A stretch of 59,938 nucleotides of DNA. Source: an uncultured bacterium. Lineage in GTDB: Bacteria; JADJOY01. Of the stretch, positions 15,077 through 24,785 are shown piece after piece. The position numbers and the translations under genes were made by a program. The DNA lies in the NCBI GenBank assembly GCA_964450125.1, contig CAYVDO010000002.1:1-59938 (forward strand), given 5' to 3'. Positions within the stretch are counted from its first letter, which is position 1, and every line of letters starts with the position of its first letter. The notes beneath the pieces are model-generated. The model was not told where the DNA came from. It saw only the letters and a list, made by a program, of their open reading frames with translations, and did no database searches.

Positions 15077-18000
15077 CTACGCCGCTGCCCACAGCTCCGA
15101 CAGCACCACCGCTTGCTCCAGCACCGTCTGCGTCGCCTTCTCTTGCTTGTCGGGCGGGTAGCCGTGCTTGCGAAGGATGCGCTTCACCAGCACGCGAAAC
15201 TGCGCACGCACGTTCTCACGCACCGTCCAGTCGATCGTGACCTTGGCTCGCACGGTCGTCACCAGCTCACGGGCGATGTCCCGAAGCGTGTCGTCTCCGA
15301 GGACCTCCACGGCGCTGTCGTTGGTCTCGAGCGCGTCGTAGAACGCCAGCTCATCGTCACTGAGCCCGAGCGATTCGCCACGCGCGCTCGCCTCGCGCAG
15401 GTCCTTGGCGAGCCCGATCAACTCCTCGATGACCTGAGCCGCCTCCACCGCGCGGTTCTGGTAACGGCGGATCGCCTGCTCTAGAAGCTCCGCGAACGAA
15501 CGCGCCTGGACGACGTTGTGTCGACTGCGCTTCCTGACCTCGCCAGCGAGGAGCTTGCGCAGCAACTCGACGGCCAGGTTGCGGTGCGGCATGCCACGGA
15601 CTTCGGCCAGGAACTCCTCCGAGAGGATCGAAAGATCCGGCTTCTTGAGCCCCGCCGCCGCGAACAGATCGATCACGCCATCGCTCGCGACTGCTCGCGA
15701 CACGATCTGGCGGACCGCGTGGTTGAGATCCTCTTCCGATCGCTTCTCACCGTCCGCCCGCTTGGCGAGGCTCGAGCGAACCGCCTGGAAGAAGCCCACG
15801 TCATCCCGGATGCGCATCGCCTCGGCGTGCGGCACCGCGAGCGCGAACGCTTGCGACAGCTCCTGCACCACCCGCAGGAACCGCTCCTTGCCGTCTGGCT
15901 GTGCGAGCACGTGCTCCTGCGCCGGCGGCAGCAACGTGAGCCGCTCGCTGGGCGTTCCTGTGTTCCACTTCCGCCAGTCGAAGCGGTGCAGAATCCCGCA
16001 ACACACCTCGTGCTTCTCGAGCATGAACGCGACGGCCTCGTCCTGATCGAGCGCCGTTCGTCCCTGGCCACCGCTCTCGGTGTAGGTCGCAAGCGCGGCC
16101 TTGAGCTCGGGCGCGAGGCCCAAGTAGTCGACGACCAGTCCACCAGGCTTGTCGTGGAACACGCGGTTCACGCGGGCGATCGCCTGCATGAGCCCGTGCC
16201 CACGCATCGGCTTGTCGAGGTACATCGTGTGCAACGCCGGCGCGTCGAAGCCCGTGAGCCACATGTCGCGCACGAGCACCAGCCGCAGCGGATCCTGCGG
16301 ATCGCGAAAACGCTTGGCGAGCACCTCGCGTCGCGGCTTGTTGCGGATGTGCGGCTGCCACTCGAGCGGGTCCGACGCTGAGCCCGTCATGACCACCTTG
16401 ATCGCGCCGCGCTCGTCTTCGGCGTCGAACCACGCTGGCCGTAGCTTCACGATGGCGTCGTGCAGCTCCAGGCAGATCCGCCGGCTCATGCACACCACCA
16501 TGCCCTTGCCATCCATCGCTTCCAGGCGCTTCTCGAAGTGGTCGACGATGTCGCGGGCGACCAGCGCGACCCGCTTTTCGGCACCGACGACTGCCTCGAG
16601 CTGCGCCCACTTGGTCTTGAGCTTCTCCTTGCGGTCGATCTCCTCGCCCTCCGTGGCTTCCTCGAAGTCCGAGTCGATCGTCGGCTTCTCGGCCTCGGCG
16701 AGCTCGAGCTTGGCGAGGCGGCTCTCGTAGTAGATCGGGACGGTGGCCTTGTCCTCGACCGCGCGCTGGATGTCGTAGACGCTGATGTAGTCGCCGAACA
16801 CCGCTTTCGTGTTCTTGTCCGTCAGCTCGACGGGCGTCCCGGTGAAACCAATGAACGCCGCGTGCGGCAGCGCATCGCGCATGTGACGAGCGAAGCCGTC
16901 GATGAAGTCGTACTGGCTGCGGTGTGCTTCGTCGGCGATGACCACGATGTTACGCCGCTCCGAGAGCAGCGGGTGGCGGTCGCCCTTCTCGTCCGGCAGG
17001 AACTTCTGGATCGTGGTGAAGACCACTCCGCCAGCCTCGACGGCCAGCTTCTTGCGCAGGTCGTCGCGACTCTCGGCCTGCTCGGGTGGCTGGCGCAGCA
17101 GCTCTTGACAGCGCGAGAAGGTGCCGAAGAGTTGGTCGTCGAGATCGTTGCGGTCCGTGAGTACCACGATCGTGGGGTTGCCCATGAGCGGCTCGCGGAT
17201 CACTCGCCCCGCGTAGAACGCCATCGTGAGGCTCTTACCCGAGCCTTGCGTGTGCCACACCACGCCGATCCGGCGATCCCCTGGGCTGCCGCCGGCGGCC
17301 CCCGTCTCGTAGCGCCCTTCCCCGACCATCCCCGCCGTGGCGTTCACCTCGACCGCCCGCAGCGTTTCGGCGAGCGCGTGGTTCACCGCGTGGAACTGGT
17401 GATAGCCCGCCATCTTCTTCGCGAGCTTGCCGCTGCCGTCGTCCTCGAAGACCAGGAAGTGGCGCACCAGGTCGAGAAGCCGTCTCTTGTCGAAGAGCCC
17501 GCGCAAGAGCACTTCCAGCTCGGGCATCCTCGCAGGCGCCAGCTCCTCTCCAGCAATCGTCCGCCACGGCTTCCACCACTCGCGTCCGGCCGTGAGCGTG
17601 CCGACCCGCGCCTCCACACCGTCGGAAGCGACCATCACCGCGTTGAACGCGAAATACGACGGCAGCTCGGATTTGTAGGTTTGGAGCTGCTGGAACGCCG
17701 TCCAGATCGTCGCGTTCTCGTCGGCCGCGTTCTTGAGCTCGATCGTGACCAGCGGCAGCCCGTTCACGAACAGCACCACGTCCGGCCGACGGCGGAACTT
17801 CCCCTCGGTCACGGTGAGCTGGTTGACCGCCAGGAAGTCGTTCTCGCTCGTCAGATCGAAGTCGATCAGCCGCGCCTGCGCTCCACCGATCGAGCCGTCC
17901 TTGCGCCGGAACTCGACCGGCACCCCCTCCACGACCAGCTTCTGCACCGCCCGGTTCCGCACCTCGAGCGTCGCCCCCTCCACACGCAGGAGCTTTCGAT

Positions 18001-18211
18001 ACGCCTCCTCGAGCGCTTCCTTCGGCAATGCGGGATTCAGCCGTCGCAGTGCCTGCCGTACCCGCCCTTCCAGCACCACCTGCCCGTACTCGGCCCGCTC
18101 CGCCCGCGCCTCCCCCGGCGCGATCTCCGGCCCATGCGCCACCGCCCACCCGAGCGCCCCCAACCACTCGAGCGCCGCGTCCTCGACGACGGATTCGGAG
18201 AAGCGGGTCAT
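15077..18211 (-). CDS. hsdR: Type I restriction enzyme R subunit
   Basis: Start [17 protein letters not shown]. Nuclease motif [18 protein letters not shown]. Helicase motifs [11 protein letters not shown] and [10 protein letters not shown]. Length about 1044 aa. Confidence 0.95.
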
Positions 18212-18520
18212 GGGCGAGACTGAAACGAGCAACCTATTGAAATCACGCTGCCTTCTCGCCCGGAACGCCGCAACAAACGCGTTGTGACGACGGGAGGACC
18301 GCCCTCACGCGCCGCACCGCGATCGACCCCGATTATTCTGGCTGTCACGATGCCGCTTGCAGGCATGCGCGAGACCTCCCCGGTCGCCTTCGGGGGCCAG
18401 CCCGCAAGGGTGGCTCTCTGGAGCTCGGGGCCTGCATCGCACTCCACGCGCCGGGGTCAGCCGATTCGCGCCGAACACCCTGTGGGGGTGGCCGCTCGTC
18501 ACCCCCCTCGAGCGCCCTCT

Positions 18521-19135
18521 TCATGGCGATTCAGCCATGGAGGTGAGCGCTTCGGTCAGTACCTGGAAGCTCCGCGACCGATTGCGCGCCGGATCCATGT
18601 GCGCCGCGATTGCCCGAGCCGCCTCGATCTTGCGCAATCCACCCGTGAAGTACCCTGCGTCCTGAACAATGCGTTCGAACGCCTCCCACGTGCCGCCGCG
18701 AATTGCGTCGGGTTCACGGAATCGAGCCTTCGTCGGGATGCCTGCGGAGACCCGCGGATAGGCGGCGCGCACCGCATCCCAGTCCCCGAAATACCAGGCC
18801 TCGAGCTCTTCGCACGCAATCCGATTGACAACGGTCCAGTGCGTGCTTCGCCCGCGAGGGCGCAGCCCCGCGTCACGCGCGATCGCGTCGAGGTCTGCCT
18901 TGAGCCTGTGACAGTCGTCGGCATCCCGATCCACGACGACCACGATTCGCCAGCCCGCCGGCAGCCAACCGGCGTAGCCGCGCAGTCGCTCGGGAAGGCA
19001 GCCCACGAGGTCGCTCTTCCCCTGGTGTGTGAGAATCCGGAACGACGTTCCGCCGATCAGCTTCGGTAGCAGCACACGGAGCGCGGCCTCGGCCGACTCC
19101 TCCTCGACGATGACTTCGAGGTGTTCGACGGTCAT
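18521..19135 (-). CDS. DUF4276-like protein with Toprim-like acidic signature (E ... DxD)
   Basis: Start [19 protein letters not shown], whose ATG overlaps the ATPase stop (ATGA at 19132-19135). Also [11 protein letters not shown] and [10 protein letters not shown]. Length 204 aa. Confidence 0.75.
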
Positions 19136-20391
19136 CGCGCAACGACCGCCCGCTGCGGGCGGCCGCCATCGATCAGCGGATCGCCCACCCCGAGTCGCCC
19201 TTCCATCCACAAATGGCCCATCTTGGCGCCAGCGGCGACGAACTCCGGTACACCGCGCACATCCGAGGCCCGCATGGCCTGCGTGAAGCCTCGGTCATCT
19301 CGGTACAGCACACGCACTTCCTCGGGACGCACTCCATTCAGGAAGAAGGGTGAATGCGTGGTGACCAACAGCTGTGACCGCTCGGTGGACGCGCGGCACT
19401 CCTCCGCGAGTTCCGGCAGCAAGCGGGGGTGCAGGAAGTTCTCCGGCTCCTCGATTCCAACGAATCGAGGCGGCTCCGGATCGTAGAGCACCGTCAGATA
19501 CGCCAACATCTTGAGCGTACCGTCCGATGCGAATCGAGAAAGCACCGGCCTCTCGAACGGCGCATCCTTGATCTGCAGCAGCAGCCGTCCGTCCTGCATC
19601 GGCTCCGCGACGATCTTCTCGAGCTGGGGAACTCGGCTGCGGAGAACGGTGAAGATCCGATCGAGCCGCGCCGGGTGCTGCTCCTTCAAGAACTGGATGA
19701 CGTTCGCGAGATTGTCCCCTGTCTTGCTCAGACGCTCTTGCGGTCCCGCTTCTGGCTGGCCGCGCGCATCGTCGACCGAGAGGTACGACACATACCAATC
19801 GGTGATGAACTCACGGAGCGCCGCAACGCGCGGGTGATCGGCGAACTGCCCGAGCGTGTTCACCGCGATGAGGTCCGGCGCGCGCAAGGGAATCTCCACC
19901 CGTTTTCCCCGGTCATCCGGCTGCTCGCCCGGAGTCGCGCTGCCCTGCCCGCGCCGGTAATCCAAGAACTTGAAGGGGCGCCCGGAACCGGGGGCGCGGG
20001 TCCAGCGGAGCCACTCCTCCGCGACGAACACCTTCCCCCGCTCTTCGTCCACGGACAGGTGATACGTCATCACCGGCGCCTTCGGACTCTCTCGGTACTT
20101 GATCTCGATCGTCACCGGCTTCGTTTGGCCGCGGGTCTTGAGCTCCTTCGCTCGCCCCCGTCGATCCCAGGCGTAGCGCAGACCGTTCTGGAAACACTCC
20201 GAAAGAAACGTGAATACGTCGAACACCGTCGACTTGCCGCTTCCGTTCGGTCCGAGAAGCACCGTGAGCGGCGTGATCCCCTTCAGCTCGACATCCCGCA
20301 GTGCACGGTAGTTCTCGACGCGAAGCTGCTCGATGCGCGGCGTCGCGATCGGCGGGAGTATCGGCTCGGCCATCCGGCGCAGCTTGGTCAT
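19132..20391 (-). CDS. ABC/SMC-like AAA ATPase (AAA_15/21-type)
   Basis: Walker [10 protein letters not shown], signature-like SDGTLKML, Walker [15 protein letters not shown]-loop TTHSP. Its ATG overlaps the hsdS stop (ATGA at 20388-20391). Confidence 0.85.
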
Positions 20392-21612
20392 CGCGTCACC
20401 TCGTACCCGATGTTCGCCGCCGAGTCTACGCGAAGCTCGCCGGAGATGAGCTTGGGGAGGAGGGTGGCGCGAGTCATCGCGAGCGACCGCGACTCGCGCC
20501 TGGTTTCCAGAGCCCGCGAAAGCACGGCAGCGAGCCCACTGTCCAGCGCGCGCACGAGATCCGCGGGTGGAATGACGAGCTGAAGGCCGAGGATTGAAGA
20601 CGCCTGAGCCCGTTGGTGGCTATTCGATGTCCCTGTAACCAGTTCCGCCACCTGCTGACGAAACAGACGAGATCGCGAGAGGCTATACACGTAGGCTGCC
20701 GTGAACGGCGGCCGAGCCATCAGGACCAAGAACTCGGTCGAACACACCGATCGCGCATCCACCTCCGCGCCAACCAGCCAGACCCGCTCGATGGTGGGAT
20801 TCAGCTTCGATACCAACACGCTGTGCGGTGGTACCCGAAACTTCAGGCTCTTGATCTCGGCCCCGCGCTCCGATTTCGGCGACTGCCCCTCATCAAACGC
20901 CGGAATGCTGAAGTGCGCGAACTCGGATTCCGGTTCGTCGAACGGATTCACCTGGTCGCGCAAGAGTTCGACCGCGTCGCCCAACGCGCCAACACCCCAC
21001 CCCGCCGGTATCTCGCCCAGCTCGCTGTCTTCGAACGAATCAGGGAAGAGGTCGGCGAGGGGTTTCGGGAGACCGGAGTCGCGGCCCTCGGCTTTGGCGC
21101 GGACGGGGTCGAAGTCGACGAACCAGGACTTGAAGAGCGCCTGCGCCATCGCTTCGAGCGTCTCGTTCATCCGGCGGTTCAACTCGATCTTGTCGTCGAG
21201 GGTGCCGAGGATGCGGGCGATGGCGCGTTGCTGGTCGCCTGGTGGAACTTCAACGACAACCGGATGGAGGAAATTGCGATTCAGCGATGGTTGGGCGCTG
21301 CCTGAGTTGAAACTCTTGAAGTCGAAATGGCTTAGGAAGTAGTACGCGAAGCGCGCATCGTTCTCGTGAAAATCGGTGACGTAGAGAGCCGTGTTCAATG
21401 GCCAGAAATCGACGTCCGAGTAGCTCACGACTCCGTATGAAGCACCACTGCGGCCCACTGTTACGCCTGGTCCCGGCACCTTCGCGGTGTCGTGCCAGCC
21501 CGTGACGCCGAAGGATCCGAGAATCGGAACCGAGCCCGGACGCCGCCGCTCCTCAGGAAGATCGTGACCCCGCTGAAGTGTCACAAACTCACCGAGTGGT
21601 ATTCGAACCCAC

Positions 21613-21629
<17 letters not shown>
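20388..21629 (-). CDS. hsdS: Type I R-M specificity subunit (two target-recognition domains)
   Basis: Conserved central and C-terminal helices: [35 protein letters not shown] and [24 protein letters not shown]. Confidence 0.9.
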
Positions 21630-23199
<1,570 letters not shown>

Positions 23200-23235
23200 C
23201 TGGATGCGCTCTCTTCGGGTGAACACGGAGACGTG

Positions 23236-23264
23236 ATTATCCCCCGAGCGGGCAAAGCGGCAAA
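23236..23264 (-). promoter_or_regulatory. Candidate sigma-70-like promoter for the hsdM operon (TTTGCC-17 nt-GATAAT)
   Basis: Read on the minus strand, about 35 nt upstream of the hsdM ATG. Hexamer match only. Confidence 0.3.
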
Positions 23265-23319
23265 CCCGTACACCGGATGTGGCACCTGCTGGCACGGCCT
23301 CGCTTCTCGCGATGATTCC

Positions 23320-23348
23320 TTGCTTATTCCTAGCGCTATTGATATAGT
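23320..23348 (+). promoter_or_regulatory. Candidate sigma-70-like promoter for the HNH/DUF222 gene (TTGCTT-17 nt-TATAGT) in the only AT-rich stretch of the window
   Basis: Hexamers and spacing read directly. The ATG is at 23379, preceded by ggaga. Confidence 0.35.
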
Positions 23349-23362
23349 GAACATATATTCAC
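23347..23362. promoter_or_regulatory. Imperfect palindrome GTGAAC-ATAT-ATTCAC overlapping the -10/+1 region; candidate operator
   Basis: 5-bp perfect arms GTGAA/TTCAC. It resembles a GAAC-N4-GTTC (Cheo-type SOS box) with one mismatch. Confidence 0.35.
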
Positions 23363-23378
23363 CATACGGAGAAACAGC

Positions 23379-24785
23379 ATGGTCTGGCAAGACGAGGTAG
23401 CAACACGAGATCGCGAGATGGAAGCGCTCATGGCAGAAGTCACGATTCTCGCAGCACACATCAGCGCAGCAACGTACCGATTCCTCGTGCTGTTACGGCG
23501 GCTCGACGAGATCACGAGCTGGGCTGGCGAAGGCATCGCATCGGCGGCCCACTGGCTGAACTTCCGGTGCGGGATGAACCTGCGGACCGCCCAGGAGCAC
23601 CTTCGGGTGGCGCATGCGTTGCCGTCGTTGCCTCGCATCAGCGCATCGTTCGCGAAGGGCGAGCTCAGCTTCTCGAAGGTGCGAGCGATGACGCGGGTGG
23701 CCACGCGGGCGAACGAGGACTACTTGCTCGACTTCGCGCGCTCGGGAACCGCGTGGCACGTGGAGCAGCTCATTCGAAAGTATCGAAGCTGCGAGCGCAC
23801 GCGAGAGATCGCCGAGGCCAGAGCACAGCACTCGGAACGGTCACTTCAGTGGTGGTACGACGGTGATGGCTCGCTCGTGTTCCGGGGTCGGCTGCCCGCG
23901 GAGATCGGCAGCCTCTTGGTGTCCGCTCTCCAGGCAGCGCAAACCGAGCTGAGTCGGCGCGCGGAGCCCGTCTCAGGCGAGGGCCCGACTGAATCTGACG
24001 ATTCCCACAGGGCGCCTGTGGATGAACGTTCCGCTGAACGCACTGATCCCGCGGCGACGCCGCCCTGGGTACCCGAGGAGCACGAGCCGCGCGAAGCGCT
24101 GCGGGCCGACGCACTGGCGCTCTTGGCCGAGTCGTTCCTGGCGCATGGCGGTGCAGCGCTCAACGGCGGGGAGCGTTATCTGCTTCAAGTTCACGTCGAC
24201 GAAACCGCGCTACCCGAAAATGGTGCTGGCACGCGCTGTCACCTCGACGAGGGCCCGGCGATCGCGGCAGAGACCGCGAGGCGAATCGCGTGTGATTGCA
24301 GTCGCGTGTGCCTCCACGACAACGAGCATGGTGAGGTGCTCAGCGTGGGGCGCAAGACACGCCAGATTCCGCCTGCGATTCGGCGCGCACTTCGCTCACG
24401 CGACGGCGGCTGCAGGTTTCCCGGCTGTACCAATCGCCGATTCGTGGACGGCCATCACGTCCAGCACTGGGCGGATGGCGGCGAGACGAGCCTCGAGAAC
24501 CTGGTGACGCTCTGCCGACTCCACCACCGCCTCGTTCACGAGGGTGGCTATGGCGTGGCCGTCGGCGAAGCGGGGGTCGAGTTCACGGATCCGCGAGGGC
24601 GCGTGCTGCGCTGTAAACCCGTCATCGTCGACGAAGCGCTGGCGACACTCACCGCCGAACACGAGAAGGCTGGGATTCGGATCGACGCACAAACCATCCG
24701 TCCCCACGGCTGGTATGGCGAGCCAATCATCTGGCCGTGGGCGGTGGAGAGCCTCCTCGATCGAAGCCGACCACCGGCAGGGTGA
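23379..24785 (+). CDS. DUF222 + HNH endonuclease domain protein
   Basis: HWLNFRCGMNLRTAQEHLRVAHAL..FAKGELSFSKVRAMTRVAT (DUF222-like). C-terminal HNH: CRFPGCTNRRFVDGHHVQHWADGGETSLENLVTLCRLHHRLVHEGGY. Confidence 0.85.
   Translation: MVWQDEVATRDREMEALMAEVTILAAHISAATYRFLVLLRRLDEITSWAGEGIASAAHWLNFRCGMNLRTAQEHLRVAHALPSLPRISASFAKGELSFSKVRAMTRVATRANEDYLLDFARSGTAWHVEQLIRKYRSCERTREIAEARAQHSERSLQWWYDGDGSLVFRGRLPAEIGSLLVSALQAAQTELSRRAEPVSGEGPTESDDSHRAPVDERSAERTDPAATPPWVPEEHEPREALRADALALLAESFLAHGGAALNGGERYLLQVHVDETALPENGAGTRCHLDEGPAIAAETARRIACDCSRVCLHDNEHGEVLSVGRKTRQIPPAIRRALRSRDGGCRFPGCTNRRFVDGHHVQHWADGGETSLENLVTLCRLHHRLVHEGGYGVAVGEAGVEFTDPRGRVLRCKPVIVDEALATLTAEHEKAGIRIDAQTIRPHGWYGEPIIWPWAVESLLDRSRPPAG

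Follow-up and report, generated by a model that had tools for sequence, protein, structure and literature searches.

Layout of a type I restriction–modification operon carrying two additional genes

The stretch of DNA analyzed here (the window: 59,938 nucleotides, positions 1 to 59,938 of contig CAYVDO010000002.1 in assembly GCA_964450125.1) comes from an uncultured bacterium of the lineage JADJOY01 and carries, on its minus strand, a type I restriction–modification (R-M) operon in which two further genes lie between the specificity and the restriction gene. Both the list of open reading frames (ORFs) and direct reading of the sequence give the order hsdM, hsdS, an ABC-type ATPase gene, a DUF4276 gene, a gap of 309 nt, and hsdR. 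The ATPase gene (19132..20391) encodes a 419-aa protein of the AAA_15/AAA_21 group, and the DUF4276 gene (18521..19135) a 204-aa, Toprim-like predicted nuclease; by their Pfam and PADLOC matches, these are the ATPase component and the partner of the candidate defense system HEC-01. The three Hsd proteins of the host operon are each full length, with the characteristic type I domains in Pfam. The methyltransferase gene hsdM (21613..23199, minus strand; N6_Mtase 2.1e-108, HsdM_N 2.4e-25) starts at ATG 23199, its frame staying open upstream as far as a GTG at 23295; hsdS (20388..21629, minus strand) encodes a 413-aa specificity subunit (Methylase_S 1.4e-16); and hsdR (15077..18211, minus strand) encodes a restriction and translocase subunit of 1044 aa counted from ATG 18211, in which all domains are present (HSDR_N 2e-46, SWI2_SNF2 5e-79, T1R_D3-like, T1RH-like_C 3e-137) and a PD...ELK nuclease motif is visible.

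The two additional genes are tightly joined to each other and to hsdS. The hsdS stop and the ATPase start share a 4-nt ATGA (ATG 20391-20389 over TGA 20390-20388), and the ATPase stop and the DUF4276 start share another (ATG 19135-19133 over TGA 19134-19132); between the end of the DUF4276 gene (18521) and the hsdR ATG (18211) lie exactly 309 nt (18212..18520). The pair is probably co-transcribed and translationally coupled with hsdM and hsdS. This gene order, the protein motifs given below, both overlaps and the length of the gap had been described in an earlier note made from the sequence alone, and all of them were found again here; that note had also pointed out that the hsdS–hsdR interval is the slot occupied by prrC and rlo genes, and had put the pair forward as a defense candidate, both of which remain appropriate.

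The protein pair and its place among ATPase–nuclease systems

The small protein matches the Pfam profile DUF4276 (PF14103) at 3e-28 over 191 of its 192 positions, and the PADLOC profile PDLC04202 ("HEC-01B") at an E-value of 2.6e-81, with residues 5-201 aligned to positions 2-201 of 204. Its motifs lie at residues 6-14 (LEVIVEEES), 65-74 and 107-116. Nine residues are invariant in an alignment of 56 homologs (E11, E12, D69, D71, C75, E109, E110, E112 and W114), and E11, D69, D71, C75, E109, E110 and E112 are invariant in 76 genomic relatives too. The AlphaFold2 (AF2) model, with a mean predicted local distance difference test score (pLDDT) of 90.2 and a predicted template modeling score of 0.86, has strands at 5-10, 31-36, 62-69 and 102-107 that alternate with helices in the core order beta1-alpha1-beta2-alpha2-beta3-alpha3-beta4, followed by a helical C-terminal half. 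In this model E11 and E12 come directly after strand 1, D69-R-D71 falls at the end of strand 3, and E109 and E110 follow beta4. A glutamate after strand 1 and a DxD after strand 3 of a predicted four-stranded beta-alpha core correspond to the Toprim pattern; the Glu + DxD pattern that the earlier note had proposed for a Toprim metal site is confirmed by the model and by the invariance of E11, D69 and D71.

A fold search of the same model gave a comparable picture. Foldseek returned three PDB matches at E ≤ 1.2e-3 and none from there to 0.03, and all three significant matches are C-terminal regions of OLD nucleases (6nk8_B, 6njx and 6nk8_A; probability 1.00, template modeling (TM) scores 0.39-0.47). 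Among predicted viral structures (BFVD), the sole full-length match with a probability of 1.00 is an RloB-like protein (TM 0.51). At the level of sequence, no profile link between DUF4276 and the Toprim of P2 Old was found (hhalign probability 0.3%), the PDB held no sequence match for the small protein, and no Pfam Toprim-clan family other than DUF4276 matched it at E ≤ 0.01. Of these searches, only the one for folds linked DUF4276 to solved Toprim structures. Two papers have made the same assignment, Payne et al. (bioRxiv 10.1101/2024.01.29.577857) and one describing DUF4276 and RloB; in such work, DUF4276 and RloB are described as members of the Toprim superfamily, and Mad4 of the MADS system as a DUF4276 homolog.

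The ATPase matches the Pfam profiles AAA_21 (6e-30), AAA_15 (7e-18) and SMC_N (1.5e-8), and the PADLOC profile PDLC04182 ("HEC-01A") at an E-value of 1.1e-161, with residues 18-404 aligned to positions 2-404 of its 406. It is covered end to end by an ABC ATPase hidden Markov model (HMM) and has no extra domain. Its motifs are GPNGSGKST (47-55), SDGTLKML (289-296), a further motif at 310-322, and TTHSP (344-348); the key residues among them (Walker A K53, the signature SDGT at 289-292, the Walker B and catalytic EE at 314-315, and the H-loop H346) belong to elements that are invariant across 60 ATPase homologs. The closest PDB folds to its AF2 model (pLDDT 81.6) are, by Foldseek, PtuA of Septu and retron type I-A, Thermus OLD and SMC heads (E 6e-14 to 1e-12, TM 0.4-0.5), and the C-terminal half of the protein aligns with P2 Old (E 6e-5). 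The earlier note's description of the locus as an ABC-type ATPase split from a Toprim-like DUF4276 protein is borne out by the Pfam matches, the predicted fold and the OLD matches alike. The ATPase is 74-82% identical to homologs in many phyla (P0122-P0240), and its nuclease partner only 61-70%; the least conserved ATPase stretches are residues 129-168 and 369-388, and no hypervariable patch was seen in the alignment of homologs. In PHROGs, the ATPase matches families of unknown function only, and no informative family was recovered for the small protein.

By profile match, the pair is an instance of the PADLOC candidate system HEC-01, and so a further example of a catalogued kind and no new category; because both proteins match HEC-01 models over their full length, this is a known candidate system and not a discovery. 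For the small protein, PADLOC returned only HEC-01 models at E ≤ 1. Matches to the AriA, AbiLi, mad3, PtuA and NsnB models are tens to more than 100 orders of magnitude weaker than those to HEC-01. Payne et al., who defined HEC-01, describe it as an ABC ATPase plus a TOPRIM-like partner, embedded in Hma systems; they aligned the partner structurally to the Toprim of B. pseudomallei OLD, with a conserved metal site, and took into their model the cassettes that lie within BREX, DISARM and type I R-M systems (1070 and 353 instances; bioRxiv 10.1101/2024.01.29.577857). The window pair agrees with this definition in having two adjacent, co-oriented genes, the ABC ATPase first and the DUF4276/TOPRIM protein second, and embedding in Hma, BREX, DISARM or type I R-M already falls within it; it differs in coming from a genome of ~69% GC (guanine plus cytosine) and in the overlap of the hsdS stop with the ATPase start. 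Within HEC-01, the pair belongs to the sub-cluster PDLC04182/PDLC04202, sister to PDLC04144/PDLC04143. The latter best matches the pair from Pseudomonas agarici that has been tested against phages, to which the window ATPase and DUF4276 protein are 40% and 30% identical over their full length. The A and B labels of PADLOC-DB are swapped between these sub-clusters: the 395-position model PDLC04144, named 'HEC-01B', represents the ATPase, and the 190-position model PDLC04143, named 'HEC-01A', the DUF4276 protein, an exchange that could mislead automated annotation.

The view that the pairing is uncharacterized and has no demonstrated function, taken in the earlier note, is consequently outdated: HEC-01 is catalogued, its TOPRIM similarity and OLD-like metal site are published, Mad3 and Mad4 are recognized relatives, and one negative and one positive phage test of HEC-01 have been reported. 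In the positive report, a HEC-01 cluster picked at random is stated to have given E. coli B protection from one or more of T7, T5 and T4, the positive representative came from a cold seep, and HEC-01 ranked among the top 12 system types in cold-seep genomes (Nat Commun 2026, PMC12881386).

Several better-described systems combine related parts. Mad3-Mad4 of MADS resembles the window pair in joining an AAA_15/21 ATPase to a DUF4276-type Toprim protein within a methylation-based defense locus. Deletion of mad3 or mad4 weakens MADS, both genes being needed for full defense, and mad5 can be deleted only if mad2 or mad3 is deleted as well, a dependence that connects Mad3 with the toxic arm (Maestri et al., bioRxiv 10.1101/2023.03.30.534895). 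In MADS detection models, MAD6-8 are mandatory and MAD3/4 merely accessory. As a candidate, MADS was rejected: the ATPase reaches 121 bits against the NCBIfam MAD3 equivalog, whose cut-off is 420 bits, and only 1e-21 with PADLOC mad3. The host system here is, by contrast with MADS, a classical HsdMSR; the flanking genes carry type I R-M Pfam domains only, and none of mad1, mad2 and mad5-8 is among them, a result that covers these flanking genes and not the whole window. In the PARIS paper, AbiL and MADS3-4 are named as ABC-ATPase/TOPRIM systems; PARIS can itself be embedded in other systems, and according to its published mechanism the nuclease is set free from an ATPase scaffold once a trigger appears. 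Membership in PARIS was likewise rejected, since AriB is a DUF4435 protein, the partner here is DUF4276, and no AriB model matched in Pfam or PADLOC. The AriA models that score on the ATPase (PDLC02980 3e-30, PDLC02979 2e-20) have lengths and coordinates identical to the generic Pfam AAA_21 and AAA_15 profiles, and no AriA chain is among the 50 Foldseek PDB matches listed for the ATPase. PARIS is, further, often borne by phages or satellites; in contrast, 50,697 phage records contain no DUF4276 relative, and the window ATPase has no poorly conserved sensing patch of the PARIS kind.

AbiL and RloA-RloB share with the window pair the split into an ATPase and a Toprim-like protein, the hsdS–hsdR interval of type I operons is also where rlo genes are located, and it is an RloB-like viral protein that gives the full-length BFVD fold match noted above; this family was set aside, with no Pfam RloB (PF13707) match at E ≤ 0.01 and an AbiLi HMM match (E 2e-27) much weaker than that to HEC-01. 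OLD supplies the top PDB folds for the small protein and one of the top folds for the ATPase, and OLD/Gabija membership fails on architecture: OLD and GajA each hold both domains in one polypeptide, here there are two separate ORFs (with no long ATPase-DUF4276 fusions among 150 cluster representatives), and the neighbors are hsdS and hsdR, with no GajB-like helicase partner. PrrC and RloC also place an ABC-type ATPase gene between hsdS and hsdR, and PrrC is a classic R-M-linked second line of defense (bioRxiv 10.1101/2024.01.29.577857). Unlike the window pair, with its separate Toprim protein, PrrC is a single, EcoprrI-dependent protein with its own C-terminal anticodon-nuclease domain; the window ATPase has no such fused domain, which excludes PrrC/RloC membership, and most relatives of the window pair have no R-M neighbor. 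Septu and retron type I-A are two-gene systems of an ATPase and a small nuclease, and PtuA is both the closest solved ATPase fold (E 6e-14, TM 0.44-0.52) and the best PDB sequence match; they differ in that PtuB is an HNH protein, not Toprim, and the PADLOC PtuA model reaches only ~1e-15. Judged by its sequences, the pair falls outside PARIS, OLD/Gabija, AbiL/Rlo and MADS.

Related loci and candidate roles of the pair

Of 7335 candidates scored from a database clustered at 90% identity, 4342 are related to the DUF4276 protein at E ≤ 1e-3; at 50% identity, its cluster representatives number 1465. At least 573 relatives occur in a scan of one genome per species, and the best 80 of these, 52-67% identical to the window protein, make up the set of loci compared here. 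They span ~15 phyla, Methanosarcina included. An ATPase gene, its product 61-78% identical to the window ATPase, lies directly upstream of the DUF4276 gene in all 78 loci with upstream DNA; the two genes overlap, stop over start, by 4 nt in 46 of 79 loci and by 1 nt in 16 of 79. Pairwise distances of the two proteins correlate (r=0.53), the ATPase being the better conserved. Given the HMM E-values and the retention of the pair in 78 of 78 loci, chance is ruled out for the pairing by these comparisons, which also show a wide horizontal spread of the module. In two archaeal loci (L025, Methanosarcina sp. DH2; L067, a metagenome-assembled genome of Methanosarcinales), the DUF4276 protein is 54-60% and the ATPase 64-74% identical to its window counterpart, a degree of similarity that implies inter-domain transfer.

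Searches with the window Hsd proteins (tblastn) showed that ~12 of the 80 loci have type I R-M genes in their surroundings. Among the two nearest ORFs on each side, Pfam found Methylase_S six times, HsdR domains four times, N6_Mtase twice, RhuM twice and BrxL once; the remaining neighbor families, well over 100 unrelated ones per side, are nearly all single occurrences and mostly housekeeping. These flanking ORFs were called with a greedy longest-ORF heuristic, so that some high-GC neighbors are probably mis-called. PADLOC identified neighbors at four further loci: HmaA (L074), PglZ (L062 and L037) and a DpdE/DrmD-like helicase (L045). Altogether, ~20% of the 80 loci lie in or next to a modification-based defense system, most commonly type I R-M, and ~80% stand alone among housekeeping genes, with no modification system within ~3 kb; these fractions are approximate, and lower bounds where contigs are short. 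In neighbor-joining trees, the R-M-embedded pairs are distributed over five or more separate positions, with non-embedded pairs among them. In loci that contain hsdR, the pair is mostly found immediately 5' of that gene, other cargo being located between hsdS and the pair.

Some individual loci illustrate this range. Stand-alone pairs occur among housekeeping or type VI secretion system genes (L081, L082, L086). Two degenerate R-M contexts retain intact ATPase-DUF4276 pairs: in L084 (5027-11701), the order is hsdM, a 76-aa ORF in place of hsdS, ATPase, DUF4276 and hsdR; in L088 (4332-8618), a truncated, 724-aa hsdR lies upstream of the pair, with Schlafen/AlbA_2 and YhcG-like genes nearby. On the Meiothermus taiwanensis plasmid pMtWR-220 (L089; NZ_CP021131.1, 47.8-59.7 kb), three cargo modules share one type I operon, in the order hsdM, DUF262 (GmrSD-like), hsdS, a DUF4433 protein, a macro-domain protein, ATPase, DUF4276 and hsdR, with 4-nt overlaps among the last three genes; the DUF4433 and macro-domain combination may be DarT/DarG-like.

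The reading we favor, and hold to be rather better than evenly supported, is that the window pair is a HEC-01-type two-gene defense module inserted in the hsdS–hsdR cargo slot of an intact type I operon. More generally, such pairs are most likely autonomous, mobile modules of an ATPase sensor and a Toprim nuclease that repeatedly land in, or are lost from, cargo slots near hsdR; the autonomy follows from the ~80% of loci that stand alone and from the polyphyly of the R-M-embedded pairs. A role in defense is favored in that the only recurrent neighbors are type I R-M, BREX, Hma and Dpd/DISARM-like genes. It also receives support from the effects of mad3 and mad4 deletion and from the one reported case of phage protection by HEC-01 (PMC12881386). 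By analogy with PtuAB, AriAB and OLD, an ATPase oligomer would serve as a scaffold, binding the small nuclease at a set stoichiometry and holding it in an inactive state; a signal of infection, or a shift in ATP or nucleotide state, would release or activate the Toprim protein; and the freed protein may then cut nucleic acid, DNA or tRNA, stopping the phage or the infected cell. Co-transcription and translational coupling with hsdM-hsdS would allow co-regulation and co-transfer with the R-M system, the module yet acting autonomously.

A number of observations weigh against this interpretation. The Toprim link comes from fold and motif, at modest TM scores (0.39-0.51) and with no profile support, and the ATPase-nuclease complex, its trigger and its substrate are all put forward by analogy. 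The sole HEC-01 representative tested by Payne et al., from Pseudomonas agarici, gave no protection against the phages used (bioRxiv 10.1101/2024.01.29.577857), and the available text of the positive report gives neither magnitude nor mutant controls (PMC12881386). The tested P. agarici pair belongs to the sister cluster of PDLC04182/PDLC04202 and not to this sub-cluster itself. Unlike PARIS, the DUF4276 family is absent from the 50,697 phage records and rare on plasmids, with only 10 matches. Finally, the ATPase is unusually conserved and has no variable patch, unlike the trigger-binding surfaces described for PARIS AriA; this pattern is unexpected if the ATPase itself recognizes fast-evolving phage proteins.

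Several other roles can be envisaged. The pair could act as a guard or back-up of its R-M system, keeping watch on the type I enzyme or on inhibitors of it (Ocr/ArdA-type DNA mimics or Stp-like peptides) and firing only when restriction is blocked. PrrC with EcoprrI and PARIS with Ocr are precedents for such behavior. The pair sits in the slot known from prrC and rlo genes, is coupled to hsdS by a 4-nt overlap here and likewise in L016 and L073, and has type I R-M as its top neighbor family (the ~12 of 80 loci, plus L084, L088 and L089); pairs became embedded on several independent occasions, for the most part immediately 5' of hsdR in the loci that have it, and Payne et al. propose a logic of this kind for embedded ABC-ATPase systems generally (bioRxiv 10.1101/2024.01.29.577857). 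However, ~80% of the close relatives (52-67% identical) have housekeeping surroundings and no modification system within ~3 kb, the cassette occurs in BREX, Hma and Dpd-like contexts as well, which argues against a specific Hsd partner, the pair is intact in L084 without hsdS and in L088 with a truncated hsdR, and the nearest relatives of embedded pairs are non-embedded. The stand-alone majority and the variety of host systems thus weaken the guard reading, which we regard as unlikely, although a facultative synergy with the R-M system may exist. The earlier note's suggestion that the pair backs up the surrounding R-M system survives in one part, type I R-M being by far the commonest neighbor, but not in the other, given the predominance of stand-alone relatives. 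A closer integration, in which the pair, like Mad3/Mad4, would help HsdMS to discriminate or cleave unmethylated DNA, could be argued from the weakening of MADS defense in mad3 and mad4 deletions, from the tie of Mad3 to the toxic arm, and from the placement of the pair in the transcription unit of hsdM-hsdS and not in that of hsdR. Yet all parts of HsdR are present, its nuclease and motor domains included, and the R-M system is missing nothing; MAD3/4 are only accessory in MADS detection models, and the majority of relatives stand alone. The complete HsdR and the wide miss of the MAD3 threshold (121 against 420 bits) make a MADS-like role the least credible of those considered, and a very unlikely one.

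The pair might also be non-immune: either a selfish, addiction-like stabilization cassette or an OLD/RecF-like nuclease of DNA repair or processing, hitch-hiking in mobile operons. The negative first phage screen, the prevalence of housekeeping genes among the neighbors, the strong conservation of the ATPase across phyla, the lack of a phage-borne copy in 50,697 phage records, and the toxin-antitoxin label on Pfam AAA_21 are all compatible with such a role. Against it stand the recurrence of defense systems, and of nothing else, among the neighbors; the one positive HEC-01 phage assay (PMC12881386); the patchy occurrence of near-identical cassettes over ~15 phyla and archaea, which is typical of defense genes; and the fact that the relatives PtuA, OLD, AriA, AbiL and Mad3 are all defense proteins. 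On balance, a non-immune role seems distinctly improbable. A further reading would make the HEC-01 cassette a facultative sentinel for modification-based immunity, whose highly conserved ATPase would sense generic anti-restriction attack (DNA mimics, or a stalled or inhibited methylase or translocase), and not a protein specific to one phage, and then unleash the Toprim nuclease. This idea draws on the repeated, independent landing 5' of hsdR, on the coupling to hsdS in some loci, and on the occurrence at BREX, Hma and Dpd-like loci; we consider it doubtful and offer it as speculation.

Of the candidate systems that PADLOC flags, HEC-01 is one of the most abundant, and experimental support for it is thin and conflicting. 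The present locus is a clean, intact example in a high-GC genome, and the comparison of its relatives yields usable constraints: an obligate pairing coupled at stop and start; a set of invariant acidic residues and one cysteine (E11, D69, D71, C75, E109, E110 and E112); very strong conservation of the ATPase across bacteria and archaea; a stand-alone fraction of ~80%; and polyphyletic embedding, mostly next to hsdR.

Promoters, the intergenic gap and base composition

Two sigma-70-like promoter matches lie upstream of hsdM (23236..23390, minus strand; consensus matches only), where 0.4 would be expected from shuffled sequences, and these may represent a candidate promoter for hsdM-hsdS-ATPase-DUF4276. 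The same scan for promoters and terminators gave no match in the 309-nt gap (18212-18520), with the limit that the sigma-70 consensus was used and may not apply to the host organism. No homolog of the gap sequence was found among 88 related loci. On the plus strand of the gap, and so antisense to the hsd operon, lies a borderline match to the DUF3800-VII RNA motif (18358..18441), the sole Rfam match in the 60-kb window, with 39.6 bits where the gathering score is 36.2, and a whole-window E-value of 2e-4. The match is GC-rich, has five non-canonical pairs, and folds no better than shuffled sequence (z-score -0.8); the element was not found in eight other embedded loci, and no DUF3800 domain occurs in the five adjacent genes, to which that scan was limited. 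Either a chance match or an orphan element is conceivable; its status is uncertain, and the match is recorded here as unexplained and not counted as part of the defense system. That the element is a genuine antisense regulator of the pair or of hsdR is a side possibility, and an unlikely one.

Divergent from the hsd operon, on the plus strand, lies an HNH/DUF222 gene (23379-24785). The block formed by this gene and the R-M/HEC-01 genes (15100-24700) has a GC fraction of 0.60-0.68, compared with 0.70-0.72 in its flanks. Neither a tRNA gene nor flanking repeats were found at its borders, which are marked by the mild GC dip only; the lower GC of the block suggests horizontal acquisition.

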